A stretch of DNA of 64,000 nucleotides from Thermodesulfobacteriota bacterium. GTDB taxonomy: Bacteria; Desulfobacterota; Desulfomonilia; Desulfomonilales; Desulfomonilaceae. The stretch's first letter is position 1, and every line of letters starts with the position of its first letter. Below, one piece after another: positions 3,246-51,765 of the stretch. The DNA lies in the NCBI GenBank assembly GCA_040755955.1, contig JBFMAA010000009.1, positions 1 through 64,000 on the forward strand. Reading direction: 5' to 3'. The notes below the pieces were generated by a model. That model was not told where the DNA came from and did not search any database. It was given only the letters and a program-made list of their open reading frames with translations. The translations under genes and the position numbers were made by a program.

Positions 3246-4246
3246 CAGACCCGGTGAGGCGTTTGGCGAGGCTTGCGGTGCTGCTCGCGATGGCCACGGT
3301 AATCCACACGGCCGAAGCCCTGCTTCCGGTCACGGTGCTCTGGTTCAGATTCGGTTTTGCCAACATTATCGGATTGGCGACCCTGTGTCTGTTCGGGTTC
3401 AAGGACGCGCTGGTGCTGACCGTAGGGAGGATAGTGTTGGGCTCGTTGGCAACCGGCCAATTCGGATCCCCCGCGTTCATGCTGGCCTTTGCAGGGGGCA
3501 TCAGTGGGATTGGCGCAATGGGACTGGCACGCAGCCTGTCGGAGCGCCTGGGAGCCCGAATCGGCAGTCGTTTCGGTACTTGTCGGTCGGTATCCGACTC
3601 CGTGGCCGGCACACCGGTTGGCCCCCGGACCGGAAACACTGAAAACCCGGGGACGAAAGCCGACGCTTGTCCCCGCAGCGGTGCCGATGGGTACCACAGC
3701 TCTTCGCAGGCCGAACAGAAGCCTAATCCCGTCAGAGCGGACGAGCGTGAAGGCATGTGCACTACTATCCTTCAATTTCTTCGCCCGCTGAGAAGATTTG
3801 TTGTGCAAATCTGCTTCGGTCGAGGGGTCTGCGGCGGTTCTTTCCTGGGGAAAGCGTGCGGTTTCCATGTGCGTAGAACCAACCAGCCCCGCCATGGGAC
3901 TGCACGCGGACCGACCAAGGTCGACGCGATTATTGATTGCGGCTCACACCCGCTCTGTGTCAGTAATGTGGGTGAGGCCGCATGCCGGAACGAAGCGCCG
4001 GCGAGCGCGGACAATGAATCAAGCAGTGGCAGTACCGGTCTGTTCTCCGAGGTCGGCATAAGTATCATTGGTGCGATCTTTCACAACCTGGGTCAGTTGG
4101 CCGCGGCCTATCTGGTGCTCGTACGAAGCGAAGGAATTCTGCTTCTCCTGCCGTTCATGTGGATGGCCGCAGTGGGGACCGGCTTTGTCAACGGTCTGGC
4201 AGCCCGGTTCGTGGTCGAGCGTCTGCGGGCCGCGTCGCAAGGTTGA
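3242..4246 (+). CDS. Gx transporter family protein carrying an in-frame ~490-bp insertion (repeat-containing); possibly inactivated
   Basis: N-terminal 107 aa and C-terminal 63 aa (GISIIGAIFHNLGQLAAAYLV...) together equal a normal ~170-aa Gx transporter; middle 164 aa is low-complexity and includes dispersed repeat family A copy. Confidence 0.5.
   Translation: MTDPVRRLARLAVLLAMATVIHTAEALLPVTVLWFRFGFANIIGLATLCLFGFKDALVLTVGRIVLGSLATGQFGSPAFMLAFAGGISGIGAMGLARSLSERLGARIGSRFGTCRSVSDSVAGTPVGPRTGNTENPGTKADACPRSGADGYHSSSQAEQKPNPVRADEREGMCTTILQFLRPLRRFVVQICFGRGVCGGSFLGKACGFHVRRTNQPRHGTARGPTKVDAIIDCGSHPLCVSNVGEAACRNEAPASADNESSSGSTGLFSEVGISIIGAIFHNLGQLAAAYLVLVRSEGILLLLPFMWMAAVGTGFVNGLAARFVVERLRAASQG
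3840..3960 (+). repeat. dispersed repeat family A copy (core GCGGACCGA-AAGGTCGACGCGA-TTGG-TGCGGCTCCCAGCC) inside Gx transporter ORF
   Basis: near-identical to copies at 6905-6990, 7075-7190, 18525-18640, 40790-40885 and reverse-complement copies at 5195-5290, 8745-8840, 24470-24570, 38235-38335. Confidence 0.8.
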
Positions 4247-4375
4247 GGTGGCCCTTCTTTCATCAATAAGGCCGGCGTGTGCTGTTCCCGTCCCTTGATG
4301 AGAGGGGAACGGGGTGGCTGAAACTGGCCGCACGTGTCACTGCGCGGCACTCTCCATACCGGGATTTCGCGTATC

Positions 4376-5179
4376 ATGCATACCGATCAACTGGAAAGCG
4401 TGCTCGAGGAACTCTACGGCAGACTCAACAGACGTGAGTTTGTGCATCCCGACCCACTCGAGTTCCTCTATCGATACCCCTACGTGGCGGATCGTGAGGT
4501 CGCTGCTCTGGTGGCATCCTCGCTTGCGTACGGGAACGTCCGGCAGATCCTGCGGAGTGTTTCTTCCGTGCTCGAGCGCATGCCCGTTCCGCATCGTTTC
4601 TTGTCACGGTCGACACGCGACTCGCTCCTGATGACGTTTGCGGGCTTCAAGCACCGGTTCACCACTGGTGCGGAGCTCGGCCTGATGCTCTACGGAGCAA
4701 AGCTGGCCATCGAACGTTTCGGGTCATTGGCCGCGTGTTTCAACGCCGGCCTGAGCCCCGACCATCAGACCATCGTGCCCGCGCTGGCAGCGTTCGTGCG
4801 CGAGCTGGCCCAGGTGTTCAACGGCAAGCCCAGAAGCCTTCTCCCTTCGCCCGACGCCGGAAGCGCATGCAAAAGACTGAATCTCTTCCTGAGATGGATG
4901 GTACGCAAAGACGACGTGGACCCGGGAGGTTGGGACAACGTGGATCCCGCCTTGCTGGTGGTTCCGCTTGACGTCCACATGCACCGCATATGCATGCGAC
5001 TGGGGCTCACCACACGCAAGCAGGCCAATCTCAAAGCCGCGCACGAGGTGACTCGCGCGTTTCGATCTATTGCCCCTCATGATCCGGTCCGCTACGACTT
5101 CGCACTCACTAGGCTCGGAATCAGGGATGATATGGACCCACGGGCCTTTCTGGACCGGTGCAGCCGGCGAAGAAAGTGA
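4376..5179 (+). CDS. TIGR02757/DUF2400 family protein
   Basis: 268 aa; conserved block LVASSLAYGNVRQI...LVVPLDVHMHRICMRLGL typical of this uncharacterised family; start at ATG 4376. Confidence 0.6.
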   Translation: MHTDQLESVLEELYGRLNRREFVHPDPLEFLYRYPYVADREVAALVASSLAYGNVRQILRSVSSVLERMPVPHRFLSRSTRDSLLMTFAGFKHRFTTGAELGLMLYGAKLAIERFGSLAACFNAGLSPDHQTIVPALAAFVRELAQVFNGKPRSLLPSPDAGSACKRLNLFLRWMVRKDDVDPGGWDNVDPALLVVPLDVHMHRICMRLGLTTRKQANLKAAHEVTRAFRSIAPHDPVRYDFALTRLGIRDDMDPRAFLDRCSRRRK

Positions 5180-5295
5180 ACCACCGCATTGCAACGCGGC
5201 TGGGAGCCCCGGCCAATGTTCGCGTCGGCCTTCCTCGGCTCGCCCGCGTTACGATGGCGGGGAAAGTTGGTTCCACGCACGTTGATACCGCAGAC
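5170..5295 (-). repeat. dispersed repeat family A copy (reverse orientation)
   Basis: ggctgggagcc...cgcatg/acgatggcggggaaagttggttccacgcacg matches reverse complement of the family A core. Confidence 0.7.
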
Positions 5296-5407
5296 TGCCG
5301 CGGGGGTAGAACAGACACATCCTACGTTGCTGAAGAGGATTCGCTCAACGAGTTCTCGCTGCCGGCCAAGAAGTTGAACCACAGCATTGCAGCGGAGGAC
5401 TGTCGGA

Positions 5408-6868
5408 TCATTCTCGGCGTCCGGGGAACACCTCGATGGTTCGCAGACAATACCGAGTGACCGCTCCAGCCTGGGCGAGGCTTCTACCCAGCAGTTCCGT
5501 GAACGCGCCGTACTGTCTCGGTCTATCCTGGGTCGCCCCGAGCATGGTCTCCTGGAGGAGAAACTCTGCGCCTTCGTCCAGGGTGAAGTCCTTTGCGTCG
5601 AGCCGCTTGTCGTCCACCATCTTCACCAGCGCCCGATCACAACGGGCGGCAAGGCTTGCAGAGATACGGCTCTCACGCTCCATGAGTGATCTCACTGTCG
5701 GTGAGCGACTCTCCCCACTCTGCCGGATCACGCTCAGCAGCATCGCGTCGGGATCTTTCTTCAGGGCTTCGTTGAGGAGATAGTGCGCCACCGACTCGAA
5801 TAGGATGTGGTGATTCTTCAGCAGATTGGCATTGCGCTGCGCAAACCCCGCGGGGTTTGGGTCCAGCATGAACCTCCGCAACAGCGAACCCAAGGAAGGC
5901 GGAAACGCTTTGGCATGATAGGGTTGAGTGAGATCCTGGATGTAGTGCATCGCCCAGGAAAGGAAACGCCACCCCCAGTAGTGTGCCTCGGCCTTGAACG
6001 CAAGTCTTGCCAGAGCCAGGCACACGCGGATGCGTTCCTCCATGAAGCTGCGCCTGAGACCGGGCCACACAGCGGTAATCAACGCAGGCTCATGAAGAAA
6101 AGCCATGTGGAACGCTGCCTGTGAGCTCTTTCCCGTGGCCGATCCGAAGGGCACCGGCCCATACGCGTAGTCCCGAACGACAAACAGGTCCTGATCCATG
6201 CCCCAGTCGGGTTCATCGGAAAACGTGCAGAGGATCTCACGCGGACTGATCTGTTCTTCGTAGGGAGTCGGGACATATGCCCTGCCCGGCGGGCCGGACC
6301 TGCCGGGGTTGTGGGCTGCGGCAGGCCCGATCTCCTCGGGTCGCATCACTCGAACGTAGGGTATGGACAGACTCGGATTGAGCTTCAACGCCTTGAGGAA
6401 CTGATCCACCGTGTCGACGTCCCTTGGAATGGCCCAGACATGAGGCTTGGTCCCGGTCTTTCGGCCGAGGGTATCCCAGTACCACCCCACGAGGAAGCGT
6501 ATGCCTTCTCTGACTGTGTGGAGGAAGTCTTCAAGCGGCAAGACAGGAACGCGTCCGTCAAGCTGCCCTGATTCCACGGATTCCAAGGCCGTTCTGGTCA
6601 GTATGGAGTGCGTGTTCCAAGAAATCCCGCGGTGTTCCTTGATCTGTGCGGCACTCCCCATTTCCGGGGCGACCTGTTCCTCGGTCGCGGTGCGCGGGTC
6701 CGCCCCCTCGGTGGATGAGGGTTCCGGTTTCTGTTTCGGCAGGTGGTCGACTGTGTTGGCCAATTCAGCTCCATGCAACTTGGCGGGCTCGGAGGCCTGG
6801 CCCACGAGATCAGGCTCCACCGGGGGGCTACTTTCCCGATAACAGCCTTTCCGAACACCCTCGCGCAT
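5408..6868 (-). CDS. zinc-dependent phospholipase C / S1-P1 nuclease superfamily protein
   Basis: HYIQDLTQPYHA matches the HYxxDxxQPxH zinc-ligand motif of Zn-PLC; WNTH near the N-terminus matches the W1/H14 ligands; no signal peptide seen; alternative start at ATG 6661. Confidence 0.55.
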   Translation of the reverse strand: MREGVRKGCYRESSPPVEPDLVGQASEPAKLHGAELANTVDHLPKQKPEPSSTEGADPRTATEEQVAPEMGSAAQIKEHRGISWNTHSILTRTALESVESGQLDGRVPVLPLEDFLHTVREGIRFLVGWYWDTLGRKTGTKPHVWAIPRDVDTVDQFLKALKLNPSLSIPYVRVMRPEEIGPAAAHNPGRSGPPGRAYVPTPYEEQISPREILCTFSDEPDWGMDQDLFVVRDYAYGPVPFGSATGKSSQAAFHMAFLHEPALITAVWPGLRRSFMEERIRVCLALARLAFKAEAHYWGWRFLSWAMHYIQDLTQPYHAKAFPPSLGSLLRRFMLDPNPAGFAQRNANLLKNHHILFESVAHYLLNEALKKDPDAMLLSVIRQSGESRSPTVRSLMERESRISASLAARCDRALVKMVDDKRLDAKDFTLDEGAEFLLQETMLGATQDRPRQYGAFTELLGRSLAQAGAVTRYCLRTIEVFPGRRE

Positions 6869-6894
6869 CGCCTACCCTGCAACCGAGGCCGCCC

Positions 6895-7000
6895 GCAGGC
6901 TGTTCCGATAACACGTGGGACTGCACGCGGACCGACCAAGGTCGACGCGATTATTGGTGGCGGCTCCCAGCCGCTCTGCACTACTATGCTGCGAAATCCT
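6895..7000 (+). repeat. dispersed repeat family A copy
   Basis: gggactgcacgcggaccgaccaaggtcgacgcgattattggtggcggctcccagccgctctg. Confidence 0.8.
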
Positions 7001-7074
7001 CGGCTGCCGCGAGGATTTCTTGTCGTAATCCGCTTCAGCAGCGTGGCAGATGGCCATGCTTCCCCCCCCGGCAG

Positions 7075-7190
7075 TGAGCGGTTTGCACGTGCGCAGAACC
7101 AACTCGCTCCGCCATCGGACCGCACGCGGGCCGAGAAAGGTCGCCGCGATCGTTGGCTGCGGCTCCCAGCCGCTCTGTGGTGGTGACCGC
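7075..7190 (+). repeat. dispersed repeat family A copy (tandem to previous copy)
   Basis: gtgcgcagaaccaactcgctccgccatcggaccgcacgcgggccgagaaaggtcgccgcgatcgttggctgcggctcccagccgctctg. Confidence 0.8.
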
Positions 7191-7408: not shown

Positions 7409-8413
7409 ATGAACTACCACACAGTCGAATATGGAACACTGATCGCTTCAGTCGAGGAACGCATACTCGCCGGCGGTGCACTGGAGCGCGAAGAAGGCGA
7501 ACTGCTCCTGGACTTGCCCGACGAGTTCCTCTTGCATCTTCTTGCCGCGGCGGACCGCATCAGGATACGATTCAAGGGGAGTTTCTTCGATTCCTGTGCC
7601 CTTGTGAACGCCCGGTCGGGCCGATGCAGCGAGGATTGTGCGTTCTGTGCTCAATCTGCCCGTTACGACACGGACGCGCAGGTCTACGGGCTCCTTTCCG
7701 CGGAAGAGATCCTTTCCGCGGCCCGGGAAGCCCAGGAGATTGGTGCATCCCGATTCTGCACGGTCACCAGCGGCGGCGCGCTGTCGGCTGCGGAGTTCGA
7801 CTCTCTCATGGAAGCTTTGGACCTGGTCAGATCCGAAGTGGATATCGCGCTCGACGCGTCATTGGGGTTCCTCGATGACCGGCGAGCTCAGCGGCTTCTC
7901 CGGGCCGGGGTGACCCGCTACAACCACAATATCGAGACCTGCCGGGACCATTACCCCTCCATATGCACCACCCACCGGTTTGATCAGCGCCTGGAAACGG
8001 TGCGCGTCTCGATGGAGAACGGGCTCTCCACCTGCTGCGGAGGCATCATGGGCCTGGGGGAAACGCCCGGACAGCGCCTTGACATGGCCTTCACGCTTCG
8101 AGATGTGGGAGTGGACTGTGTTCCCCTGAACATACTCAATCCCAGACCGGGAACTCCGCTCCAGAATTCGCTCCCGCCGCAACCTTTGGAAATCCTCAAG
8201 ACCGTCGCGATCTTCCGCCTGGTGCTTCCCCATGCGACCATCAAGATCGCGGGTGGCAGAGAGAAGAACCTCGGCGATTTCCAAGCAATGGCTCTCCGCT
8301 CCGGAGCGAACGGCATGATCGTCGGAGGGTATCTTACCACATCAGGACGTGCCGTCGAGGAAGACCTGCGCATGATAGCACAGGCCGGGTACACCATGGA
8401 AAGGCCGCGTTAG
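7409..8413 (+). CDS. bioB: biotin synthase
   Basis: 334 aa; radical SAM CxxxCxxC (CSEDCAFC), BioB-specific YNHNIET and auxiliary cluster residues; typical length. Confidence 0.9.
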   Translation: MNYHTVEYGTLIASVEERILAGGALEREEGELLLDLPDEFLLHLLAAADRIRIRFKGSFFDSCALVNARSGRCSEDCAFCAQSARYDTDAQVYGLLSAEEILSAAREAQEIGASRFCTVTSGGALSAAEFDSLMEALDLVRSEVDIALDASLGFLDDRRAQRLLRAGVTRYNHNIETCRDHYPSICTTHRFDQRLETVRVSMENGLSTCCGGIMGLGETPGQRLDMAFTLRDVGVDCVPLNILNPRPGTPLQNSLPPQPLEILKTVAIFRLVLPHATIKIAGGREKNLGDFQAMALRSGANGMIVGGYLTTSGRAVEEDLRMIAQAGYTMERPR

Positions 8414-8718
8414 GCTGCGTGCGGGCTCACTCGCTGCCTTAGTGCACCCCATACGTTCACACATTCCTCGGCAGTCCGGCCGGCGAATCCCGGCTGACGT
8501 GAGAAGATGTTCCCTCCCAGAGAACGCAAAGGACGCAGAGGAAGACGGCGTTCCTTGGAGTTTTTCGCTTGATTGCTGGAGTCCGTCCTTTTTGGGATCA
8601 AATGCGTCACCCCCGGCTTCGAAGGTTTCGGGAACCTTGTCTCAAGGGATCAGGCAGAACCGGAATTGGACAGACACCGCGGCGACCAGCGTGAGCCGCA
8701 TGCTCCAGAAGTTTGAGG

Positions 8719-8925
8719 GGATGGGGGTCTGGTGGAAGGGGCGTTTTTCAAAACGACGGCTGGGAGCCGCAACCAAATTCGCGTCCACCTTTCTCGGTCC
8801 GCATGAAAACCCAGGGCGGGGCGAGTTGGTTCCACGCAAGCGAAGAAAGGCACGTTGCCTTCTCCCAGAGCTGCCGGCCTGAAGATTTCTTCTCGGAAAA
8901 GGAAGAAATCGAACGTTATTAGTAA
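8719..8925 (-). repeat. full-length family A element with terminal palindromic hairpin (GGGGTCTGG-GGAAGGGGCGTTTTT)
   Basis: contains core in reverse orientation plus flanking modules also present at 16790-17012 and 24465-24640. Confidence 0.75.
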
Positions 8926-8967
8926 AACGCCCCCTCCCCAAGCGCATTTCCATGAGAGGAGATTGCA

Positions 8968-9944: not shown

Positions 9945-10260
9945 CGCGGCAAAACAAGCTTTGCAACCACAGTGAATGAAAGAACGGTATTCACTCGCTT
10001 CACTACCGTAGGTTGAAACCTACGGCTAGTCACGGGCTGCCCTTTCAGGGCAGAAGAGGCCCGCGCCCTGCTGGGCGCACTGTGAGTAGCCATGGGTTTT
10101 AACCCATGGAAGGGGAGAGCGCGCGATGACAGGGTTATAGCGGTTCTCGTTAGTTTCCACCGATTGGCGGGCTGGAAAGCCCGCCCCACAAGCCCTGATC
10201 TGACACGAATCGGAAGTTACTTTCGAGAACCGGTATATTTCGCGGCAAGCCCTAAGTGCC
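9945..10260. other. structured intergenic region with at least five perfect tetraloop-type hairpins; candidate ncRNA or REP cluster
   Basis: hairpins ccgtaggttgaaacctacgg, ctgccctttcagggcag, gcgccctgctgggcgc, ccatgggttttaacccatgg, ggcgggctggaaagcccgcc within 200 bp; no ORF. Confidence 0.35.
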
Positions 10261-10295: not shown

Positions 10296-10480
10296 AATCG
10301 ACCAATATTTCATATGCTTATCAGAACATCTTCCGGGGGAAACCCTTTGTCGGAAGATGCGAGTTCCGGTGATGTGGGGCGCCGACTTCCATGCCTGGTT
10401 GTGGCCGCGTGCGTTCACGGTGTTTTTCGGAAGGGGTTCCACCGGATATCCTCCCGTTCGGAAAGCGACTTGTTATCAGA
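10296..10480. repeat. dispersed repeat family C copy (tggccgcgtgcg...ggtgtttttc-gaa-ggg-tt module)
   Basis: shares modules with 62-260, 12340-12620, 17390-17650 and 40545-40620. Confidence 0.65.
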
Positions 10481-12339: not shown

Positions 12340-12620
12340 GGGTCACCCTCCCCAGCGGCGACCACCGGGAGCCGCCATGCTCCAAGAGTTCCCGTGAAAG
12401 TCTCCCGGGGGAAACCCTTTTGAAAAAGGGTTGTCCCCCGGACCCCTTTCCGAAAACTTTTGAAACATCGGTGGTTCTGGCCATCCAACGAGTTCTCGGG
12501 ATGTCGGGAGGTGACTTTCATATTTTGTTGTGGCGTCATGCCATGACTGTTCTTGAGGATGGGGGTCCTGGGGAAGGAACTTCTTGCAAGAAGTTCCTTC
12601 CCCAGGAAGTCTTTCTGAGA
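12340..12620. repeat. dispersed repeat family C copy including perfect 30-bp palindrome GGAAGGAACTTCTTGCAAGAAGTTCCTTCC
   Basis: palindrome also at 17563-17592; other modules reverse-complementary to 70-230. Confidence 0.7.
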
Positions 12621-16769: not shown

Positions 16770-17012
16770 AACTTGTTATGGAAATGCGAATTCTGGGGGA
16801 AAAGGCGTTTTGCCAATAGCCTTCGATTTCTTCTTCCGAGAAGAAATCTTCAGTTCAGCAGCTCTGGGAGAAAGCAACGTGCCTTTCTTCGATTGCGAGG
16901 AACCTACTCGCCCCCCCATCGGTCTCCATGCGGACCGAGAAAGGTCGACGCGAATTTGGTTGCGGCCCCCAGCCGTCGTCTTGAAAGAGGCCCCTTCCCC
17001 CAGACCCCATAG
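16770..17012 (+). repeat. full-length family A element ending in CCCTTCCCCCAGACCCC terminus
   Basis: near reverse complement of 8719-8925. Confidence 0.75.
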
Positions 17013-17059
17013 TCACTAACTTGGGTGCCCTGCTTGTTCCTCCCGGCCTTGAAAGGCCC

Positions 17060-17150
17060 GCCCATTGTCTCTCGTCCCTCCGGGACGTCGGCGTTCCCAA
17101 GCCCCGCAGAGGCGACTGAAAATAACAGGACGCTTCAGCGCCGGGCAAGA
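17060..17150. repeat. repeat family D (GTCCCTCCGGGAC...CCCAAGCCCCG-AGAGGCGACTGA-AATA-C-GGA-GCTTCAGC-CCGGG)
   Basis: second copy at 47690-47770 with about 85% identity; possible small RNA. Confidence 0.6.
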
Positions 17151-17389
17151 AGATGGAGCCCGCATCGCAGGTGCAAGGCCGAAGTGAGCGCCCTTCCCCC
17201 AGACCCCCATAGCCGCTCACTCGACGACAGGGGAGTTCGACATGTCAGGCAGCTATCCCTCCTGCTGGGAGGCCCGCCGGCATGATCCACTACCGACCCT
17301 TATGGTACTATCGCGAGAAGGGTGGTCAGTGTCAATCGGAAGATACGGAAGGGAACGATTCTCAGGGAAATGTAGTTCCTGGGGGAAAC

Positions 17390-17650
17390 GTCTTTGCCGG
17401 AAGAGGGCTGCCTCGGAATCACGTGTCCTCAAGAGCAGCCGGTGCCGGACGGCATAACGAAGGACGGAAGTCTCGTCTCGACATCACAAGAGCTCGGTGA
17501 ATGGTCAGAAGGGCCCAATATTCTGAAAGTTTTCGGAAGGGGGTCCGGGGGAAGCAACTTCTTGCAAGAAGTTCCTTCCCCCGGAATCGCATTTTCTGAT
17601 AGAGGATTTCCCCCGGTTGACTTTCTGATAAACGTCTTCCTGCGTCGACC
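17390..17650. repeat. dispersed repeat family C copy with 30-bp palindrome
   Basis: ggaagcaacttcttgcaagaagttccttccc and kgfppgdf-encoding module. Confidence 0.7.
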
Positions 17651-18215: not shown

Positions 18216-18499
18216 GTGCCATCCTCCTAAGGCTTCGGGAAAGCGAAGCAGTATCTATGCTTATCCATATATCTGCATTTTGAGCTCCTGTCAAGCCGAT
18301 TCTTCCCCAACGAGAACACACCGCAAAGCACAAATCAGAGAAGTGGGAGAATTCGCCCGTCCTGAGCGTTGCTTCTTCCGGTCTTCGGGCCTGCAGCGAA
18401 ACAACTCCACCATCTCTCGTGCCCCTCTTCCATGGGTCTTAATCTTCAGTTTCTTCACCCGCGGCAAGGATTTGTAGTCGAAATCTGCTTCAGCAGCAG

Positions 18500-18645
18500 G
18501 GTGGGTGGCGGTCCTCACCTGGGAAAGCCGGCGGTTTCCATGTCCGCAGTACCAACTCGCCCCGCCATCGGAACGCGTGCGAGCCGACGAAGGTAGACGC
18601 GATTGTTGGCCGTTGCTCCCAGCCGCTCCATGGTGTTCTCTGTCT
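18500..18645 (+). repeat. dispersed repeat family A copy
   Basis: gtccgcagtaccaactcgccccgccatcggaacgcgtgcgagccgacgaaggtagacgcgattgttggccgttgctcccagccgctc. Confidence 0.8.
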
Positions 18646-22067: not shown

Positions 22068-22091
22068 TGTGCCTCGTTGCCCTCCGATTTG

Positions 22092-24464: not shown

Positions 24465-24640
24465 GCGGCTGGGAGCCGCAACCAGAATCCGCGTCCACTC
24501 TCTCGGTCCGCATGAAGGTCCAGGGCGGGGCGAGTCAGTTCTGCGGAAGCGAAGAAAGGCGCGTTGCTTTCTCCCGGAGCTGCTCACTTGAACGTTTCTT
24601 CTCGAAAAAGAAAGAAATCAAACGTTATCAGTCAGAAGCA
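24465..24640 (-). repeat. full-length family A element (reverse)
   Basis: ggctgggagccgcaaccagaatccgcgtcc...gaagaaaggcgcgttgctttctccc plus flanking module shared with 8820-8925. Confidence 0.75.
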
Positions 24641-24737
24641 AGGTTGCCGAGGCGAGTCCTTTCATCAATGAACTTCGATTTCGTCTCTCCCTGAGAAGAA
24701 TTCGAGATGTCGGCAGCATAGACGCCTGTCGCCGGGG

Positions 24738-34882: not shown

Positions 34883-35113
34883 ATGACCGCTCACGAACAT
34901 ACAATCGCTAAGGTTCAGCAACTGCCCGAGCCCTTGCTGCAAGAGGTCAATGACTTCATTGATTTTCTTATGGTGAGACACGATCGGACACTTTGGGACA
35001 TGTGGACCCATTTCAGTGAGGGACTCGACCTGGTGGAGCCAGACTTCCCCAGCTACTTGCCAAACCTTGAAACATATGAGGAGAGCTTGGCTCGTGGAGA
35101 CTTCCGATGGTGA
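34883..35113 (+). CDS. DUF2281-type antitoxin (MazE functional analogue)
   Basis: 76 aa; KVQQLPEPLLQEVNDFIDFL motif; GGAAGGA SD; stop overlaps mazF start. Confidence 0.7.
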   Translation: MTAHEHTIAKVQQLPEPLLQEVNDFIDFLMVRHDRTLWDMWTHFSEGLDLVEPDFPSYLPNLETYEESLARGDFRW

Positions 35114-35451
35114 CGGTTTCCCGCGGGGACGTGATCCTGTGTGATCTCAACCCGATGGTAGGGACGGAGCAGTCTGGAGTCCGGCCTGCGCTGGTCGTCC
35201 AGATCGACCGTGCAAATGCCGTGAGTCCGCACATCATCATTGTTCCGTTCACTACGCGCATTCACAGTGTGGTTCTCCCGTCTCATGCGCTCATTCCCGC
35301 AGGCACCGGTGGGCTGACACGCGATTCGGTGGTGCTCTGCGAGCAGATTAGAGTGATCGATAAGCGCCGTGTCATTCGTGTGCTTGGTCACTTGAGCGAC
35401 CCCTATATGGAACAGGTGGCCGGCGCACTGCGGACGATCCTTGGGCTGTGA
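35107..35451 (+). CDS. mazF: MazF/PemK family endoribonuclease toxin
   Basis: 114 aa; RGDVILCDLNP...GVRPALVVQ...VPFTT PemK signature. Confidence 0.85.
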   Translation: MVTVSRGDVILCDLNPMVGTEQSGVRPALVVQIDRANAVSPHIIIVPFTTRIHSVVLPSHALIPAGTGGLTRDSVVLCEQIRVIDKRRVIRVLGHLSDPYMEQVAGALRTILGL

Positions 35452-37446: not shown

Positions 37447-37559
37447 GCCCGTTTCAGGCTCCCGGGCTTGACAGATGCGGTATTTTGTTGATACTGGATT
37501 GCCAATGTGAAATTATTCTGAGTTCGAGGCGGTCACACGTCTCGCTGAAGGGACCTGAG

Positions 37560-38243
37560 ATGCGAACCAACGCTCGATGGTGGGGAATTCTTGCTTCTTT
37601 CTGGACGGTGCTTGCCCTGGGAACGCTCGCGGCTGCCTTGGCTGCGGAAATGGCCCCGCCGGAACTGGGCCTCTCATTGCTGCATGTGGGGGAAGTGAAA
37701 GCAGGGGCAGTCGAGCTGCGCGTGTCCACGAACACTCCCGCGCAAGGCTTCTTTTCTGCGGGGGACCGCGTCATCATCACGCTGGAGGCCCCCCGTGAGC
37801 TGTACCTGACCGTCCTACACGTGTCCGACTCAGGCGATGTGACCATATTTTACCCGGACAAGGAAAAGGCTGAGACCGCGGTGGCTGCCGGTGAGAAACT
37901 GGTCCTTTTCGGACCCAAGTCGAACGCACAGCTCGTTGCCGGAAAGGAGCTCTCCAAGGGAGGGACGGTCGCGTTCGTGAGCCCAAGGCAGTTCAGCGTC
38001 GCACTCATGAGGTTCTTTCAGGGGAAGCAGTGGATGGAAATCTCCGGCACTGCCGAGCGCGACCTGAAACTGCTCAAGGAAAAACTCGAAATCATATGCA
38101 GGGACAAGGGATTCAACCGCATAGAGATTCCGATCAAGGCCAAGTCCGGCAAGAATCTCGCGCTCGGCATCACCAAACAGGGTCGAGCACTGGCCAAAGC
38201 AAAGAGCACCCATCGCAGAGTAGCTGGGAGCCGCTACCAATAA
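37560..38243 (+). CDS. exported hypothetical protein
   Basis: 227 aa from ATG 37560; signal peptide MRTNARWWGILASFWTVLALGTLAAALAA; no motif recognised. Confidence 0.5.
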   Translation: MRTNARWWGILASFWTVLALGTLAAALAAEMAPPELGLSLLHVGEVKAGAVELRVSTNTPAQGFFSAGDRVIITLEAPRELYLTVLHVSDSGDVTIFYPDKEKAETAVAAGEKLVLFGPKSNAQLVAGKELSKGGTVAFVSPRQFSVALMRFFQGKQWMEISGTAERDLKLLKEKLEIICRDKGFNRIEIPIKAKSGKNLALGITKQGRALAKAKSTHRRVAGSRYQ

Positions 38244-38340
38244 TCCCACCACCCTTGGTCGGTCCGCATGAAGACCGATGGCGGGGTGAGTTGGTTCTAC
38301 GCACATGCAAACCCCAGCGTGCTGCGGAGGAACAATAGCG
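38230..38340 (-). repeat. dispersed repeat family A copy (reverse)
   Basis: gctgggagccgctaccaataatcccaccacccttggtcggtccgcatgaagaccgatggcggggtgagttggttctacgcac. Confidence 0.75.
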
Positions 38341-38499
38341 ATGAACTCCTCTCTTGAAGCGGATCCCGACAACAGATCTTCGCTGCTGGAGAAGCATTCG
38401 AACGATAGTCGTGCAGAGCAGCAATGTATTGATTCCGCTCGATCACCGAATCCAGTGCAGGATCGCCGCACCTGAGTGATCCTGCTTGAGATGCAATAG

Positions 38500-40488
38500 A
38501 TGGCCAAGCAATCACGCACAGTCTTCAGGTCGAAGAAACCCAAGCTTGCAATCTACTTCGCCCTCGGGTGGACCTTGGCAGCACTTGCCCTGGTGTACTT
38601 TGTGCCCGGGCCTTTCGACATCATAGACTGGAAGCTGTTTGATCGCAAGATGGCCGGACAAGCTTCCCCCCAACTGGTTACCGGCATTGTGCACTTGGAC
38701 GTGGACGACAGGGCCATAGGAAGGTACGGTCAGTGGCCCTGGGACCGGGAAATGAGTGGCAAACTTGTGGAGAAGCTGCACCGGATGGGGGCTAGACTGG
38801 TCGTATTCGACATCTTCTATTCCTCTCCTGGCAAGAGCGACAAAGGAAACCAAATCTTCTTTTCGGCAATCAAAGACGCGGGAAACGTGATCTCCGCGAC
38901 TGGTTTACCCATCACGGACGACCCTCGCAGAGAGTTCGAGCCCAGGGGTGATCAACCGAGAATCGATGCGCTCCACGACCGTGCGTGGCCGCTTCAAATC
39001 CCTTCTGCTTTTCGGCTGTTCAGAGTCAAGCACCTCGAAGACACGATTATGCCGCTGATTGAGATCATACGCGACTCTCGGGCTGTCGGGCACATCAAGT
39101 CCACCCCTGACCGAGATGGCGTACATCGCCGGATACCGTTGCTGGTGAGGTTTGAGGACAAATGCATTCCCAGTCTAAGTCTGGCCGCACTAGCCGCGTA
39201 CTGGAACGTCCCTCCGGAAGACATGCACGTCCTGCCTGGTGCTATTCAGGTGAAGCATGCCCAGCAAGTGTTGAGAATACCGGTAGATGCGAAAGCCCAG
39301 ATGATCATTCGGTGGGAGGACCCGTGGTACGCGCTCAAGAGCTACTCTGTAATTGACGTTCTGGAGGACGAGAGGGACCCGTCCGAGTCCTTTTACAAGG
39401 GAAAGATAGTCGTCGTCGGGGTGACCGCGGTCGGTACGTACGACAGGGGCCCGACCCCTGTGGATCGAGACTATCCTCTGAGTCGGATACACTCACATGC
39501 CCTCAATACGATGCTCAGCGGACGTTTTGTCTCGCCAGTCGACTTCTTTCCCTTCCCCGCATTGATCATCGCTGTCGCGACCATCGTGTTCTCCTTCTTC
39601 GGTGCACGATTGCAGCTCAGAATAGGCATCCTTATCAGCTTAGCCATACTGGCTTTGCTGGTGGTCATGCCCTTTCTTGCCTTTTCGTATCTTTCGCGCG
39701 AGCTCCCTACGGCGGGCCTTCTCTTCGTATTCCTTCCTGCTGCAACCGCGATCCTCATCGAAAGGGGTACCGGCCTGGAGCGTGATGCCGCGAGGGCATC
39801 ACGAGCTCTGGAACGATACCTTTCCCCGGAACTTCTGGAATCCATCGTCGAGCGGGGCACGGGCATAGACCTCACCACCAAACGCATGGAACTGTCCGTG
39901 CTTGTCGTGGACATCGAGGGTTTCTCCACCATCTCCGAGATGGTCGAAGTGCACTACATCAATCAGTTCCTCGACGAGTTCTTCGAGCGTGTCACTAATG
40001 CGGTGTTCGAACAGCACGGGACAGTGGACAAGTTCCTGGGAGACGGGATGCTGGCCTTCTTCGGCGATCCCGTGCCGGTCGAGAATCATGCGCGGGCAGC
40101 CATCAGGGCAGCCCTTCAGATGCAACGGGAGATGGTTCCACTCAACCTCAAGTGGGTCGCGTCGGGCCTCGCCGCGTTCGAGCAGGGTGTGCGGATTCGG
40201 ATCGGTCTCAACACAGGAATGGTGGTGGTGGGGAACATCGGTTCCGCACAGCGCATGGAATACACCGTGCTCGGTTCCGCGGTGAACATCGCATCCAGGC
40301 TGCAAAGCCTCGCGCCGCCGGGAGGCGTCCTCATGACGGCTCGCACAAAGAGCCTCGCCAAAGAGCCGATCGAATACGAAGGCCCTCAGACCATCCGCGT
40401 CAAAGGGATCGACAAGGACATCGAGGTCTACAAGATCACCAAAATCCCCCCGAGACTCGACGAGGAAACTCCGCGGCCACCCGCGTGA
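38500..40488 (+). CDS. CHASE2 sensor domain adenylate/guanylate cyclase
   Basis: 662 aa; N-terminal TM + periplasmic CHASE2, three TM, C-terminal class III cyclase domain (VLVVDIEGFST...FLGDGMLAFFG). Confidence 0.85.
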   Translation: MAKQSRTVFRSKKPKLAIYFALGWTLAALALVYFVPGPFDIIDWKLFDRKMAGQASPQLVTGIVHLDVDDRAIGRYGQWPWDREMSGKLVEKLHRMGARLVVFDIFYSSPGKSDKGNQIFFSAIKDAGNVISATGLPITDDPRREFEPRGDQPRIDALHDRAWPLQIPSAFRLFRVKHLEDTIMPLIEIIRDSRAVGHIKSTPDRDGVHRRIPLLVRFEDKCIPSLSLAALAAYWNVPPEDMHVLPGAIQVKHAQQVLRIPVDAKAQMIIRWEDPWYALKSYSVIDVLEDERDPSESFYKGKIVVVGVTAVGTYDRGPTPVDRDYPLSRIHSHALNTMLSGRFVSPVDFFPFPALIIAVATIVFSFFGARLQLRIGILISLAILALLVVMPFLAFSYLSRELPTAGLLFVFLPAATAILIERGTGLERDAARASRALERYLSPELLESIVERGTGIDLTTKRMELSVLVVDIEGFSTISEMVEVHYINQFLDEFFERVTNAVFEQHGTVDKFLGDGMLAFFGDPVPVENHARAAIRAALQMQREMVPLNLKWVASGLAAFEQGVRIRIGLNTGMVVVGNIGSAQRMEYTVLGSAVNIASRLQSLAPPGGVLMTARTKSLAKEPIEYEGPQTIRVKGIDKDIEVYKITKIPPRLDEETPRPPA

Positions 40489-40514
40489 TTCCTATGGAAA
40501 TGCGAGCGCTGGGG

Positions 40515-40565
40515 GAAGAGGCGTTTTGAAGAACGCCCCTTCCCCCAGACCCCCTTCCCCTAAAA
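40515..40565. repeat. solo palindromic hairpin terminus (GGGGGAAGAGGCGTTTTGAAGAACGCCCCTTCCCCCAGACCCCC)
   Basis: near-perfect inverted repeat; same motif at 8741-8765, 16990-17012, 17195-17215, 47890-47945. Confidence 0.75.
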
Positions 40566-40779
40566 CTTTTGGAGCATAGCGTGTCCCGCTGGTCGCCGCC
40601 CGGTGTTGGATGGGTGAGCGGGATTGCGTCATTGTAGTTCGTTGTTCCCGCAGCGCGGACATGGGTGTTCTCATGCCAAGGGGAATTCCGCGGGAAGGGT
40701 CGTTCTGCTAAGAGGGTTGAGTTTCTTGTTGCCCCGGAAGAGACCGCCAATGGCCCGACAGCTCCAGGAATGTGCGAAG

Positions 40780-40890
40780 TGCCTTTCTTCGGTTGCGTAG
40801 AACGAACTCGCCCGCCATCGGTCTTCCTGCGGACCGACAAAGGTCGACGCGAAGTTGGGTTGCCGCTCCCAGCCGCTCTGTGTCCCCTGT
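40780..40890 (+). repeat. dispersed repeat family A copy
   Basis: gcgtagaacgaactcgcccgccatcggtcttcctgcggaccgacaaaggtcgacgcgaagttgggttgccgctcccagccgctctg. Confidence 0.8.
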
Positions 40891-45885: not shown

Positions 45886-45903
45886 CTTGCCGCCTCAGGG
45901 ACG

Positions 45904-47448: not shown

Positions 47449-47689
47449 TGCTCAATCAATTCTCAGTCAGGGGCACAGGCGGCCAAATAGCCCGACCGTG
47501 GCGTCAAGAATTCCCCTTCACCCTGCCCTCTCCGTCCGGAGGAGAGGCTTTCCGAATACCCTGCCATGAACGGAGAGGCTTGCGGATACCCCCCCACGGG
47601 AGGAAGGGGCTTCCGACCCCCCATAGGCGTCAAAATAAGGGCCACCGTCCCTCATTCCCCGGCCCTAGAAGACCCGGCTGTTGTCAGTT

Positions 47690-47770
47690 GTCCCTCCGGG
47701 ACTCCGCCTCTCCCAAGCCCCGTAGGGGCGACTGAGAATAGCCGGATGCTTCAGCACCGGGACCCAAGGG
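47690..47770. repeat. repeat family D second copy
   Basis: about 85% identical to 17060-17150. Confidence 0.6.
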
Positions 47771-47884
47771 CCGAAGACCCTGTGGCGTGGCAAGCGGGTA
47801 ATTTGACGCCCATGGCTTCCGATCCCCCTCCCCTCGTGGGAAGGGGCAGGGGGAGGGGGATGACTGCCTAGATGTCGAATTCGG

Positions 47885-47945
47885 CCGTCGCCAAGTTAGC
47901 GCTATGGGGGTCTGGGGGAAGGGGCGTTTTTCGAGACGCCCCTTC
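47885..47945. repeat. solo palindromic hairpin GGGGTCTGGGGGAAGGGGCGTTTTTCGAGACGCCCCTTCCCCCAGA
   Basis: perfect 20-bp stems; family A terminus motif. Confidence 0.8.
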
Positions 47946-48105
47946 CCCCAGAATCCGTATTCACATGAGAATCCCCATGCCCGCGGGGCGGGCACAACGA
48001 AGCATGAAAAAAGGGGCGCTGGGTATATTATATAAACTCAGTCGGATAAGCGGCTGATATCACACAGGCTGACCCCCTTTTTTCATGAGAACGTGAGAAG
48101 TTCCA

Positions 48106-48951
48106 CTACTTGCCGCCGCGGGAAAACCCTCCTGAGCCGCCGCGACTGCGCGCCGTTCCCGACTTCCCCGACGTTCCCCCGGTTCTCGGCGTCCGGGCTT
48201 GAGTAGTCGCGGCCTTGTGGTATCCGGGTTGGGACATCTTCGTGTTGTCGAACCGGTTCGGGTTGAGACCGGCTGCCTGGTGTCTGTTCATCATGCTCGC
48301 CAGCAGGTAGCCCATGAAAAACCCGCCCATGCCCATGCCGAAGCTATGATCACGATGGTACCCGTTCCTGTCGGACGCGACGAGCCGCTTCTGCTTGTCG
48401 TCAAACTGAACCTTGAAGAGCTCCTTTTCGTCAGACCCGTCCTTGGTGTTGTTCTTGTTCGGGTCTTCGAACCCTTGCACGGTGCCGTTCTGCAGCATGG
48501 CGACGCCAATGGGCTTGGAGTAGACAGCCGCTTGGTTCAGATTCTCCGCGAACTTCGTGACGAACTCCTTCTCCTTGATCTTGTTCTGGGCAGTGGGCGT
48601 CTTGGGTGTCTCCTGTTTTTCTGTCGCGGTGTCGGTCTTGGGCCCAGTCGAATCAGCGGCCTTCTTGGGTTCCAGTTCCTTGATCGTGTCCCGCGCGGTC
48701 GGAGCCTTGGGTGTCTCCTGTTTGTCGATCGCTGCGTCGGTCTTGGGCCCAGTCGAATCAGCGGCCTTCTTGGGCTCCAGTTCCTTGATCGTGTCGGCCA
48801 TGATCTTCAGCACCTTGTCCAGGTCGATGAGCTCCGCCCTGGCAGCCCCGGAACCGGAAATGGGCGAATCCGGAATCCTGTCGGCTCCGCACCCCACCAT
48901 CATGACTGCGACCGCACACATGATCGCTACAATCGTCACTGTATTGCGCAT
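48106..48951 (-). CDS. lipoprotein with two 35-aa tandem repeats and Gly-rich tail
   Basis: 281 aa; signal peptide plus lipobox MMVGCGA; 105-bp tandem duplication at 48604-48808 encoding TIKELEPKKAADSTGPKTD... twice. Confidence 0.65.
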   Translation of the reverse strand: MRNTVTIVAIMCAVAVMMVGCGADRIPDSPISGSGAARAELIDLDKVLKIMADTIKELEPKKAADSTGPKTDAAIDKQETPKAPTARDTIKELEPKKAADSTGPKTDTATEKQETPKTPTAQNKIKEKEFVTKFAENLNQAAVYSKPIGVAMLQNGTVQGFEDPNKNNTKDGSDEKELFKVQFDDKQKRLVASDRNGYHRDHSFGMGMGGFFMGYLLASMMNRHQAAGLNPNRFDNTKMSQPGYHKAATTQARTPRTGGTSGKSGTARSRGGSGGFSRGGK

Positions 48952-48999
48952 GTTGCTCCCTCTCGTGGGTGAATCGTGCGACCCGGCAGGCCGCAGAAG

Positions 49000-49971: not shown

Positions 49972-50400
49972 TCACTCATGAGCGAGGTCGAGGTTGACGT
50001 ACTCCGCGGTCACCTGTATTGAGATACCGCCTCTGGGATTCATCCTTCCCACCACTCGCATCGATCTGGGTTGACATGCGGCCGTCAGATCCTCCAGAAT
50101 CCTGTTGGTGATCTCCTCATGGAACATGCCGGTATTCCTGAACGAGCCGAGGTAGAGCTTCAGGGATTTGGACTCGATGCAGAGCTTGTCCGGCACGTAG
50201 GTGATGGTAATTCGTGCGAAATCTGGCTGTCCGGTGATGGGGCACAGGCTGGTGAACTCAGGGCAGTCGAACTCGATGGTGTAGTCCCGGAACGCGTACC
50301 TGTTCGAAAACGCTTCGAGCTTCGCTTCTTCGGGACTGCGCGGGTACTTGACTGAAGCGGTTCCGAGCAGGGTGAGATCGGGAGTGCGTGTGTCGGTCAT
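49972..50400 (-). CDS. queF: NADPH-dependent 7-cyano-7-deazaguanine reductase QueF (unimodular type)
   Basis: 142 aa from ATG 50400; catalytic Cys in EFDCPEFTSLCP and QueF motif E(S/L)K(S/A)hK(L/Y)(Y/F/W) (ESKSLKLYL); the upstream 250-aa extension of the annotated ORF is discarded. Confidence 0.85.
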   Translation of the reverse strand: MTDTRTPDLTLLGTASVKYPRSPEEAKLEAFSNRYAFRDYTIEFDCPEFTSLCPITGQPDFARITITYVPDKLCIESKSLKLYLGSFRNTGMFHEEITNRILEDLTAACQPRSMRVVGRMNPRGGISIQVTAEYVNLDLAHE

Positions 50401-50631
50401 CTTTCTTCCTGAACGCGGCTGATGGAGCATGATACCAATGTGCGTCACGTCGAGCAAGCCCTCAGCCCGGCAGACAAGCAAACGGACCACCAGGCGACAA
50501 ACAGAGCCAGAAGCCTGTGCCCAGGAATGGGCCGCCTGAGCATTGTCTCTTGATTTGTTCGTGCCTTGGTGGCTTTGTGGTGTGTTCTCACGTCGGAAGA
50601 CGGATGCGCCCTGAACGGTTACGGTGCGGCT

Positions 50632-51438
50632 ATGGGAAAATCCCTTGCGGGAATAGCGCTCGGCGAATACATGCCGGTTGACTCGTTGGTGCACAGACTT
50701 GACCCGCGGACCAAGCTCGTGGGTCTTGCCGCGGCATTGATCGGAATATTTGTGTCTGGTGCGCCCTTGCAGGTGTTGTTGAACGCTGCGGGGGTGCTCA
50801 CGCTGGCGCTCTTGTGCCGGGTCGGCCGCCGAGTTTGGGCCTCGGGAGCGCGGCGGGTGATCTGGCTGGTGCTCATCGGTGCGGCAACAAACGCCTTCTT
50901 CCACACTGACGGGGCACCGGTCACCACATTCGGCAGGGAGTTGCCCTTCACTGTGGAAGGACTTCAGCGCGGGGGTTTGCTCTCCGCGCAAATTCTCCTT
51001 GCCATGATGGTCTGCATGGTGTTTGCGTTCACCACTACCCCGGTGCAACTGAGTGCGGCCATTCAGAAATGCGGCCGAGCCCTCCGGATTTCGCGGGGCC
51101 CACTGGAGGACTTCGCGCTGCTTCTCGTCTTGGCAATGCGCTTCGTGCCGATCCTGCAACACGAGTTGGAAACCCTTGTGGAAGCGCAGAAGGCTCGAGG
51201 TGTGGATTTCCGCGCTGGCGGCATCTTGTCGCGGGCCGGAAGCACGGCAGCCATACTTGGACCGGCACTAACAGGCGCGTTCAGACGGGGAGACATCCTT
51301 GCGACCGCTATGGTGGCCAAGGGTTATCGGCGGGGAGCTGTTCGCTCCGAGTATAATCCGCTTCGCTTCTCCCGTGAAGATGTGGCTGGGTTCGGGTGCC
51401 TCGCCGGTTTCGTTCTTGCGTTGATGCTCCTGGGCTAG
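50632..51438 (+). CDS. ecfT: energy-coupling factor transporter transmembrane component EcfT (CbiQ family)
   Basis: 269 aa from ATG 50632; EcfT N-terminus YMPVDSLVHRLDPRTKL and coupling-helix ARG motifs (AQKARG); no ecfA/S genes adjacent. Confidence 0.7.
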   Translation: MGKSLAGIALGEYMPVDSLVHRLDPRTKLVGLAAALIGIFVSGAPLQVLLNAAGVLTLALLCRVGRRVWASGARRVIWLVLIGAATNAFFHTDGAPVTTFGRELPFTVEGLQRGGLLSAQILLAMMVCMVFAFTTTPVQLSAAIQKCGRALRISRGPLEDFALLLVLAMRFVPILQHELETLVEAQKARGVDFRAGGILSRAGSTAAILGPALTGAFRRGDILATAMVAKGYRRGAVRSEYNPLRFSREDVAGFGCLAGFVLALMLLG

Positions 51439-51599
51439 GTGCCAAGGAACCCTTCAGCCCGCCGGCGAGAGCATGAACCATCACGGCACAGATACAACGA
51501 GAAACCCTGCTCCCAAGAATGGAAGCCGGAAGATTGCTCTTTGATTCATTTTGTGTCTCAGTGCCTTCCTGGTTCGTGGCTGTTCTTCCCCGCCGGCAG

Positions 51600-51765
51600 C
51601 CTGTGGTGTGTAATGCGCCGCACTAACCGTCCCCGCCATCGGAGCACGTGCGAGCCGAGGAAGGTACACCGCGATCATTGGCTGCGGCTCTCAGCCGCCA
51701 GGTTGGGGCTCTCAGCCGCCTGGTTGCGGCTCCCAGTCGCTCCGAGAGCGGACAGGGCAGGTCGG
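51600..51765 (+). repeat. dispersed repeat family A copy with internal duplication of the GGCTGCGGCTC-CAGCCGCC module
   Basis: cgccatcggagcacgtgcgagccgaggaaggtacaccgcgatcattggctgcggctctcagccgcc x3. Confidence 0.75.

Follow-up and report, generated by a model that had tools for sequence, protein, structure and literature searches.

Small dispersed repeats are common in bacteria, and the existence of another such family is unsurprising in itself. Among the types described so far, miniature inverted-repeat transposable elements, or MITEs, are non-coding, multi-copy sequences of less than 500 bp that possess terminal inverted repeats and are flanked by target duplications, and Rickettsia palindromic elements (RPEs) are selfish repeats that survive in protein-coding genes as in-frame translated insertions (PMC10969869). 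Members of the IS200/IS605 group carry no inverted repeats, insert 3' of a fixed motif of 4-5 nt, and do not duplicate their target (PMC4810608). Here we describe a repeat, family A, found in a 64,000-nt stretch of DNA (the window; positions 1 to 64,000 of contig JBFMAA010000009.1, assembly GCA_040755955.1) from a Thermodesulfobacteriota bacterium. Family A is probably a non-autonomous and mostly fossil mobile element, mobilised in trans by an enzyme whose gene lies elsewhere in the genome. The best reading of the data is that of an orientation-specific, target-duplicating element devoid of terminal inverted repeats, and not that of a strict MITE.

Copy number and anatomy of family A

Copies of family A were sought by repeat finding and with an nhmmer profile iterated from one copy, followed by a relaxed search; their boundaries were read from a multiple alignment and then checked base by base. 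The copy counts cover the 64-kb window, and all numbers given for family A refer to this window and to metagenome contigs. We found 11 clear and three degenerate or partial copies on both DNA strands, spread over 48 kb. An initial annotation of the window had listed 11 positions at which a small, dispersed and non-coding element recurs in either orientation; this description was borne out by the nhmmer and repeat searches, and all 11 positions hold copies, with E-values (2e-16 to 1.6e-52 within the window) far beyond chance. Three copies lie beyond these positions: an inverted, degenerate one (3545-3732), a degenerate 5' half (24664-24768) and a 5' fragment of 30 nt (5160-5189).

The element runs from 5' ACTAnTA to CCCAGCCG at its 3' end and occurs in two size classes. 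Long-type copies measure 188-193 nt (about 192 nt when intact, 188 nt in the degenerate copy), while short-type copies (165-168 nt) are about 25 nt shorter and possess a different middle segment. The unit is therefore smaller than the full length of about 210 bp proposed before, and the supposed 210-nt forms are short-type copies nested within a separate palindromic hairpin repeat, designated H. The 5' arm of about 45 nt starts with ACTAnTA and contains a T-rich/A-rich hairpin; it is followed by the variable middle segment, present in either the long or the short form, and by the approximately 90 nt of the 3' arm, whose consensus is TGCGTAGAACCAACTCGCCCCGCCATCGG...GCGGACCGAGAAAGGTCGACGCGA..TTGG..GCGGCTCCCAGCCG and which terminates in a 6-bp GC hairpin (GCGGCT-CCC-AGCCG). 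In the 5' arm, the window copies share a mean pairwise identity of 59%; the value for the middle segment is 55%, and that for the 3' arm is 75%. The higher conservation of this last arm concerns sequence rather than structure and is most simply explained as selection on source copies for what the mobilising machinery recognises.

Prokaryotic MITEs (Correia/NEMIS, ERIC, RUP, Chunjie) resemble family A in being shorter than 500 bp, non-coding, multi-copy and mostly intergenic, and also in having target duplications that fade with age, size variants, partial copies and an occasional in-frame fusion to a host open reading frame (ORF). In contrast to these elements, family A has a GC content of about 60% (that of the window is about 59%) and is not AT-rich, its two ends are unlike each other, it inserts in an orientation-specific manner, and a related insertion sequence is not among the 50 window ORFs. 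The two end hairpins, e.g., GATTTCTTC...GAAGAAATC at the 5' end and GCGGCT/AGCCGC at the 3' end, are unrelated. Comparison of the 5' 45 nt with the reverse-complemented 3' 45 nt revealed neither a terminal nor a subterminal inverted repeat in any of the nine copies tested; local alignment of the two ends gave scores of 5-6, equal to those of shuffled sequences (means of 4.8-6.5). Nor do whole copies adopt a long stable hairpin fold, their minimum free energies yielding z-scores of -2.1 to +1.4 on both strands relative to mononucleotide shuffles. The MITE label initially given to family A consequently holds for its small size, its dispersed and non-coding nature and its past insertion, as witnessed by the duplications, the nesting in H and the invaded gene described below, but not for inverted repeats or a hairpin fold.

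Family A could still be a classical MITE, i.e., an internal-deletion derivative of a DDE-type insertion sequence whose terminal inverted repeats are too short or too eroded, or of which only one end is present. Its size, its mostly intergenic copies and its 5-7 bp duplications agree with the definition of these elements in every respect save the inverted repeats (PMC10969869). We nevertheless regard this derivation as very improbable, given that both ends are conserved across diverged copies and yet are mutually unlike, and that orientation-specific insertion at an asymmetric target is unexpected from a symmetric two-end transposase complex.

Copy-specific direct repeats and target choice

Direct repeats flank the copies of family A (given here as 5' flank/3' flank), and four of these pairs are perfect: CTCTGC at 38.2 kb (38221-38412, a long-type copy on the minus strand; E = 2.2e-46), CGTTTT at 8.7 kb (8756-8923, a short-type copy of 168 nt on the minus strand; E = 7e-46), where the 6-bp repeat reads AAAACG at 8750-8755 and 8924-8929 of the forward strand, TCCATGG at 18.4 kb (18436-18626, a long-type copy on the plus strand; E = 3.4e-48), and CTTTTT around L022, one of two metagenome copies presented below. 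Imperfect pairs accompany the short-type copy 16812-16976 on the plus strand (CGTTTT/CGTCTT; E = 1.2e-42); the long-type copy 5197-5388 on the minus strand (CGCTGC/CGTTGC; E = 2.5e-45), which fills the spacer of the convergent genes 4334-5179 (+) and 5408-6868 (-); the long-type copy of 193 nt at 6980-7172 on the plus strand (CTCTGC/CTCTGT; E = 2.3e-48), located between the divergent genes 5408-6868 (-) and 7409-8413 (+); the short-type copy 40708-40875 on the plus strand (TTCTG/CTCTG; E = 6.4e-35); and the short-type copy 24466-24632 on the minus strand (CTTCTG/CTTTTC; E = 2.1e-38), also between divergent genes. Around the old, degenerate copy at 3545-3732, the flanks on the element strand are CTCTG (3733-3737) and CTCCG (3540-3544), and the pair at 3761-3952 is weak (ATGTGC/CTCTGT).

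The two flanks of a copy agree at 4.6 of 6 positions, compared with 3.3 of 6 positions when flanks of different copies are paired (permutation p = 1e-4). The repeats are thus copy-specific and not merely a constant terminal motif, and target-site duplications are present in this family as direct repeats of 5-7 bp. On the element strand, the duplicated targets are always pyrimidine-rich (CTCTGY, CGTTTT, CTTTTT, CCTGT), which makes insertion orientation-specific. The 5' flank is mostly YTCTG-like and the 3' flank often continues as TGG, giving a consensus of CTCTG|TGG in which only about 8 nt are common to the flanks; the non-consensus flanks CGTTTT, CTTTTT, TCCATGG and CCTGT are duplicated on both sides of the element.

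Two kinds of site were used recurrently for insertion. The first is the loop of H, entered by the ancestor of the short-type copies and independently by the metagenome copy L022. The second is the junction of an existing copy. A 60-nt fragment of the 3' terminus at 6915-6973 on the plus strand (E = 2e-16; model positions 134-193) is joined head-to-tail to the copy at 6980-7172 through a single CTCTGC, and the first 30 nt or so of an element (5160-5189, minus strand; a weak nhmmer match) stand head-to-tail behind the copy at 5197-5388. The 3' flank here, CGTTGC-AATGCGGTGGTTCACTTTCTTCGC, matches the 5' start of the element. At each of these two junctions, the neighbouring elements have one direct repeat between them. 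The degenerate 5' half on the plus strand (24664-24768; E = 1.2e-8, model positions 2-96, and alignment) lies head-to-head with the copy at 24466-24632 and reaches into the start of gene 24738-26459. Copies of family A thus occur in head-to-tail arrays, as neighbouring head-to-head pairs and in nested mosaics.

The copy at 51535-51739 on the plus strand has an internal deletion in its 5' arm (copy at about 51535-51698; profile match 51571-51698; E = 8.4e-26) and, downstream of it, the 3'-terminal hairpin is repeated in two additional tandem units at 51701-51719 and 51721-51739, detected as weak terminal matches and in the sequence. As a result, the terminal hairpin unit of about 20 nt (TTGG..GCGGCTC.CAGCCGCC) occurs three times in tandem at 51679-51739.

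Termini of the TG...CA type (Mu/Tn7) were considered and rejected, as they would place the invariant GCCG inside the target duplication.

Insertion into palindromic hairpin repeats

The H palindrome (GGGGTCTGGGGGAAGGGGCG-loop-CGCCCCTTCCCCCAGACCCC) constitutes a repeat family distinct from family A. At 8.7 kb, the copy at 8756-8923 interrupts an H palindrome (8724-8950) with arms at about 8724-8749 and 8930-8950; at 16.8 kb, where an inverted repeat was found, the arms at 16790-16811 and 16983-17010 enclose the copy at 16812-16976. Two solo H palindromes on the plus strand served as empty-site comparators, one at 40508-40555 (feature 40493-40560; compared stretch 40487-40600) and one at 47904-47953 (compared stretch 47880-47985). 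When the copy and one CGTTTT are removed at 8.7 and 16.8 kb, both loci become collinear end to end with both solo palindromes, as judged from their alignment, and the four loci constitute a within-genome comparison of filled and empty sites. The two composites are 89% identical over 181 nt with their flanks included, which indicates that they represent one insertion whose composite was copied later.

These data revise the view that long copies of family A end in a palindromic hairpin. The forms at 8719-8925 and 16770-17012 are flanked by the arms of H, which is the insertion target and not a part of the element, and the copy at 24465-24640 has no such hairpin. H does stand alone at 40508-40555 and 47904-47953, as had been noted, but only its right arm (17189-17215) is found at the third site, about 17195. 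Further H palindromes lie at 20-67, 12408-12445, 12559-12608 and 17535-17586. An H-left-arm-like module (40672-40707) precedes the copy at 40708-40875.

The 5' flank of the 18.4-kb copy is a copy of another module, K, that ends in the hairpin CCATGGGTTTTAACCCATGG, and an alignment of K modules places the insertion at this hairpin. K measures about 150 nt and occurs at 9984-10136, 62228-62395 and 18387-18436.

Intergenic mosaics with several modules in alternating orientations are a feature of the RAYT-mobilised REP (repetitive extragenic palindromic) sequences, BIMEs (bacterial interspersed mosaic elements) and REPINs (PMC2817692), and the family A region resembles them in this respect. A REP is an imperfect palindrome of 20-40 nt that often occurs in inverted pairs, a description that fits H (GGGGGAA...TTCCCCC) better than the non-palindromic 165-193 nt of family A. 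Most H palindromes lie just downstream of the 3' ends of genes and therefore look REP-like or terminator-like. According to the duplicated CGTTTT, family A interrupts H instead of serving as a BIME spacer, and no RAYT gene was seen in the window. The H, G and K modules around family A form a mosaic like that of BIMEs (PMC2817692), which family A has invaded.

As a repeat in its own right, H consists of GC-rich palindromes in which the outer stem (CTGGGGGAA / TTCCCCCAG) is conserved, whereas the inner stems vary and yet remain complementary (GGGGCGTTTT/AACGCCCC, GGAACTTCTT/AAGAAGTTCC, AACCCTTTT/AAAAGGGTT); it is the preferred landing site of family A. A module of about 35-45 nt, GGAGCATGGCGGCTCCCGCTGGTCGCCGC, is found at 72-116, 8674-8715 (-), 12347-12391 (-) and 40570-40606, usually some 15 nt from H, with which it makes up a composite of about 100 nt (17-108 resembles 40508-40599).

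Two copies inside a Gx transporter gene

Although most copies of family A are intergenic, as initially annotated, two of them reside within the gene at 3242-4246 on the plus strand. The NCBI annotation treats this entire ORF (P0007) as a Gx transporter family gene (PF07456) of 334 amino acids. An in-frame insertion of 492 nt (3548-4039) within this gene contains the degenerate inverted copy (3545-3732, long type, minus strand; a weak nhmmer match at 3726-3660 and a full-length alignment) and, head to head with it, an intact direct copy (3761-3952, long type of 192 nt, plus strand; E = 1.6e-52). PF07456 is split accordingly: residues 14-105 match profile positions 1-94, residues 268-323 match positions 92-146, and residues 103-266 are absent from all six aligned homologues (185-200 amino acids).

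The length of the insertion is a multiple of three, and it contains no stop codon in the frame of the gene, compared with one to eight in the other five frames (P(open) = 0.004 by shuffling). Its GC content is flat across the three codon positions (0.61/0.61/0.60), whereas third positions in the flanking gene segments reach 0.71-0.76. An AlphaFold model of low confidence assigns pLDDT values of 70-80 to the conserved helices and of less than 50 to the inserted residues, which fits a tolerated loop. Because the two copies have decayed to very unequal degrees, their sequences look like the outcome of separate insertions into this one loop. We considered a head-to-head dimer as the mobile unit and rejected it, since the two copies are unequally degenerate (E = 0.076 and 1.6e-52) and their outer flanks form no duplication. 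About 164 residues of the public 334-residue Gx record are translated repeat DNA, an annotation caveat for users of this entry.

RPEs share with family A the in-frame survival within a gene, here of two copies in a single transporter loop with the ORF kept open. They differ in being palindromic and mostly intragenic, while family A is non-palindromic and intragenic in only two of its approximately 14 copies. RPE hosts are obligate intracellular bacteria, and the host of family A belongs to a lineage of the free-living type.

Occurrence outside the window and age of the family

JGI metagenomes were scanned with TTGGNNGCGGCTCCCAGCCG, and the 93 loci obtained were checked with the nhmmer profile. 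Two of them were confirmed as full-length copies of family A: L022 (Ga0182022_1358562; 57.6% GC; E = 2.5e-28), with CTTTTT on both flanks, and L064 (Ga0181505_10013434; 54.7% GC; E = 4.8e-15), with CCTGT on both flanks. The copy in L022 sits in an H-like hairpin with a GGAAATGCG module ahead of it and a K-like hairpin nearby (about 1076-1100). Family A is thus not restricted to the window, as two diverged copies exist on independent, unrelated contigs. The window copies are 54-88% identical to each other and 54-68% identical to the two metagenome copies; since they are as diverged mutually as from these, the family is old and common to related lineages and shows no sign of a recent burst.

The same data bear on the possibility that family A is a local duplication or an assembly artefact of this contig. 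The window does stem from a metagenome-assembled genome, but we give this idea almost no credence in view of the identities of 54-88%, the presence of copies on both strands over 48 kb with unrelated flanks, and the diverged copies on the two JGI contigs, which contradict it.

Other searches returned no further members. The contig of a relative (L002; JGI 3300035696; 52.5% GC), whose Gx gene is 71% identical at the nucleotide level, lacks copies within 20 kb, a plasmid collection searched in distant mode gave no match, and viral contigs searched with two patterns contained no real copy. A 198-column six-frame profile of the core recovered only the window's own Gx protein from 5.8 billion clustered proteins; a six-frame chimera of 2011 amino acids had no match among 5.8 billion proteins, probably because it was swamped by chance word matches. 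A Nitrospira locus, among the genome-contig matches listed for a degenerate pattern, was dismissed as a chance match inside coding sequence.

Folding, coding capacity and possible host function

The initial annotation had pointed to a recurring peptide, VRRTN.PRH...GP.K.D. This peptide does correspond to one reading frame of the core, but it does not reflect a conserved coding sequence: frame-shifting indels of 1 nt are present in the core of three of 11 copies, which rules out a conserved coding frame. A protein-coding reading was also rejected because several frames are open by GC-richness alone and the translation has no Pfam match.

With respect to RNA structure, RNAalifold predicted weak folds without covariation for both whole copies and the core; the consensus fold of the core amounts to -11.9 kcal/mol (covariation term, +0.31), and one of its 14 pairs is compensatory (12 sequences only). 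The 5' hairpin is found in every copy, and its column-wise covariation does not exceed that of slide and shuffle controls. No copy matched an Rfam family at either the gathering score or E <= 1. We therefore consider a structured RNA to be unsupported. No promoter-like or terminator-like site recurs among the copies, and a reading of family A as terminator or promoter was dropped.

The copies show no consistent orientation relative to the neighbouring genes in the window: five of six copies between same-strand genes are antisense, two lie between convergent and two between divergent genes. This argues against a role as leader, riboswitch or terminator. The 3' ends of two genes run into copies; the last 23 nt of ORF 37485-38243 are overlapped by the copy at 38221-38412, and the stop and last codons of the DUF2400 gene at 4334-5179 by the fragment at 5160-5189.

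One might ask whether family A is an immobile repeat that functions for the host, be it a small RNA family, a cis-regulatory leader or terminator, or a BIME/RIME-like sequence, that was spread by duplication or recombination and has its core under selection. Conservation of 75% in the 3' core, compared with 55-59% elsewhere, even between lineages, the location of most copies between genes and the local hairpins in every copy would suit such a function. It is highly improbable all the same: in addition to the missing Rfam family, recurring regulatory site, preferred orientation and covariation, two copies lie inside coding sequence and are read through, and flanking duplications and nested insertion are signatures of insertion, not of segmental duplication.

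Mode of mobilisation

In the mechanism that we propose, staggered cuts in the target followed by fill-in would generate the 5-7 bp duplication, and the cuts would most likely be made by a transposase, encoded elsewhere, that recognises two unlike ends. Loops of palindromic repeats already in place and sites flanking earlier copies are favoured, which gives rise to arrays and nested mosaics, and intragenic copies survive only where the reading frame stays open, as in the Gx loop, or where the last codons alone are replaced. Target duplications point to an enzyme of the DDE type, a nature to which we assign slightly less than an even chance. Asymmetric ends and strict orientation rather suggest a system of the site-specific or single-strand kind, and an enzyme that is a site-specific recombinase or acts on single strands (HUH or IS110-like) is rather unlikely, whereas mobilisation by reverse transcription has only a slim chance of being correct.

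Several observations weigh against a mobile element with true target duplications. The majority of the flanking repeats are similar to a single consensus, CTCTGY, and part of the flank signal could be a terminal direct repeat of the element itself; the argument for duplication consequently relies chiefly on the pairs that depart from this consensus and on the reconstructed H palindrome. The composites at 8.7 and 16.8 kb count as one event and not as two. The TCCATGG pair at 18.4 kb might just as well represent both arms of the K hairpin that was interrupted, as CCATGG is itself palindromic and cannot separate the two. The absence of terminal inverted repeats is unusual for enzymes that make target duplications, and the identity of only 54-88% between copies leaves recent movement unsupported. 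Moreover, an autonomous parent, a transposase, an integrase or a reverse transcriptase is not among the 50 window ORFs as judged from Pfam.

Non-autonomous relatives of IS200/IS605 elements, namely palindrome-associated transposable elements (PATEs) and ISC/IS605 derivatives, resemble family A in their lack of inverted repeats, their unlike, hairpin-bearing ends, a short target motif and oriented insertion. IS110/IS1111 elements, which use bridge or seek RNAs, also lack inverted repeats and share with family A a short repeated junction core, insertion into repeated intergenic hairpins and conservation of a non-coding arm of 100-200 nt. In a bridge-RNA mechanism, one target of 11-14 nt specified by the RNA would demand conserved flanks. 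Family A might accordingly be a mini-element with asymmetric ends that moves by site-specific or single-strand chemistry of either type, in which case its flanks would be a recombination core or target motif. Apart from the ends without inverted repeats, the GC hairpin at the 3' tip and the oriented insertion at a short motif (CTCTG, then TGG) and into REP-like hairpin loops agree with this proposal. Members of the IS605 superfamily combine the lack of inverted repeats with subterminal hairpins (PMC4810608), and IS110 elements are reported to target conserved intergenic repeats (bioRxiv 10.64898/2026.03.19.712850).

We consider this proposal unlikely. Y1 transposons, including PATEs, insert without target duplication, and the subterminal hairpins of PATEs resemble each other (PMC4810608), whereas the flanks of family A co-vary within a copy, its non-consensus flanks are duplicated and its two end hairpins are mutually unlike. 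In comparison with IS110/IS1111, family A has no single extended target (>10 nt), its flanks being unconserved between copies beyond about 8 nt and a subset of copies lying in H loops; its core has no covariation, a weak consensus fold and no Rfam match at E <= 1, and no recombinase gene is found among the 50 window ORFs.

RNA-mediated mobility would take the form either of SINE-like target-primed reverse transcription, with the 3' arm as the recognition or priming module, or of a guide-RNA remnant, which may have been left by an IS110/IS605-like system after loss of its protein gene. The missing inverted repeats, the duplication length of 5-7 bp, the strict orientation towards the pyrimidine-rich target strand and the tandem triplicate of the 3'-terminal hairpin unit (51679-51739) fit this idea, as does a precise, highly conserved 3' end opposed to a more variable 5' end with occasional alterations or truncations (the fragment at 6915 and the 5' termini of the copies at 18436, 16812 and 40708). 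The core without covariation argues against a structured RNA, and we hold RNA-mediated mobility to be very doubtful.

Other features of the window

The genes of the window are ordinary chromosomal ones and encode, e.g., RibD, NrdR, a class II aminoacyl-tRNA synthetase, ArgJ, a cbb3-type oxidase subunit and methylmalonyl-CoA mutase. Of ten window proteins, five are identical in every residue to proteins of a single NCBI metagenome-assembled genome labelled 'Thermodesulfobacteriota bacterium' (MEW6348110 to MEW6348154). Four of these five are singletons when about 15 billion proteins are grouped at 90% identity, which indicates that the lineage is rarely sampled. A stretch at 54-58 kb with a GC content of 52-54% carries genes for an ApaLI-like restriction endonuclease (56252-56941), a DNA methyltransferase (55014-56255) and an AbiU2 HEPN protein (54214-55014); other toxin or defence genes encode ParE (52938-53249), MazF/PemK (35107-35451) and an AAA_21/AbiEii-like ATPase (32080-33399). 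Two tandem 105-nt units (48572-48781; 87% identical; 35 codons each) reside in the minus-strand ORF 48106-48951, which has no Pfam match. The plus-strand ORF 21204-22661 (485 amino acids, no Pfam match) was favoured by a crude GC3-based gene picker and overlaps the minus-strand ORF 21024-22067, which has a clear SPFH/Band 7 domain and is probably the real gene of this pair.

The intergenic DNA of the window is largely made of a handful of recurring modules. Outside family A, two-copy repeats of about 60-210 nt pair 12394-12608 with 17426-17631 and 148-218 with 10387-10445. A match to the Acido-Lenti-1 RNA just at the Rfam gathering score (37.3 versus 37 bits) was found at 47716-47761 (-) and 47664-47703 (+), within 104 nt that recur, with 79% identity, at 17042-17145, where Rfam gives no match; both stretches lie near an H arm.

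Implications

Family A yields spurious ORFs and inflates one public protein from about 190 to 334 amino acids. The two copies that are read through in a membrane-protein gene represent an RPE-like phenomenon, best known from Rickettsia, and the nested insertion in REP-like hairpin loops shows how intergenic mosaics arise. The combination of target duplication, ends without inverted repeats and orientation-specific insertion fits no well-defined class (MITE, PATE, REP/REPIN), and the enzyme that mobilised family A may therefore be of an unusual type.

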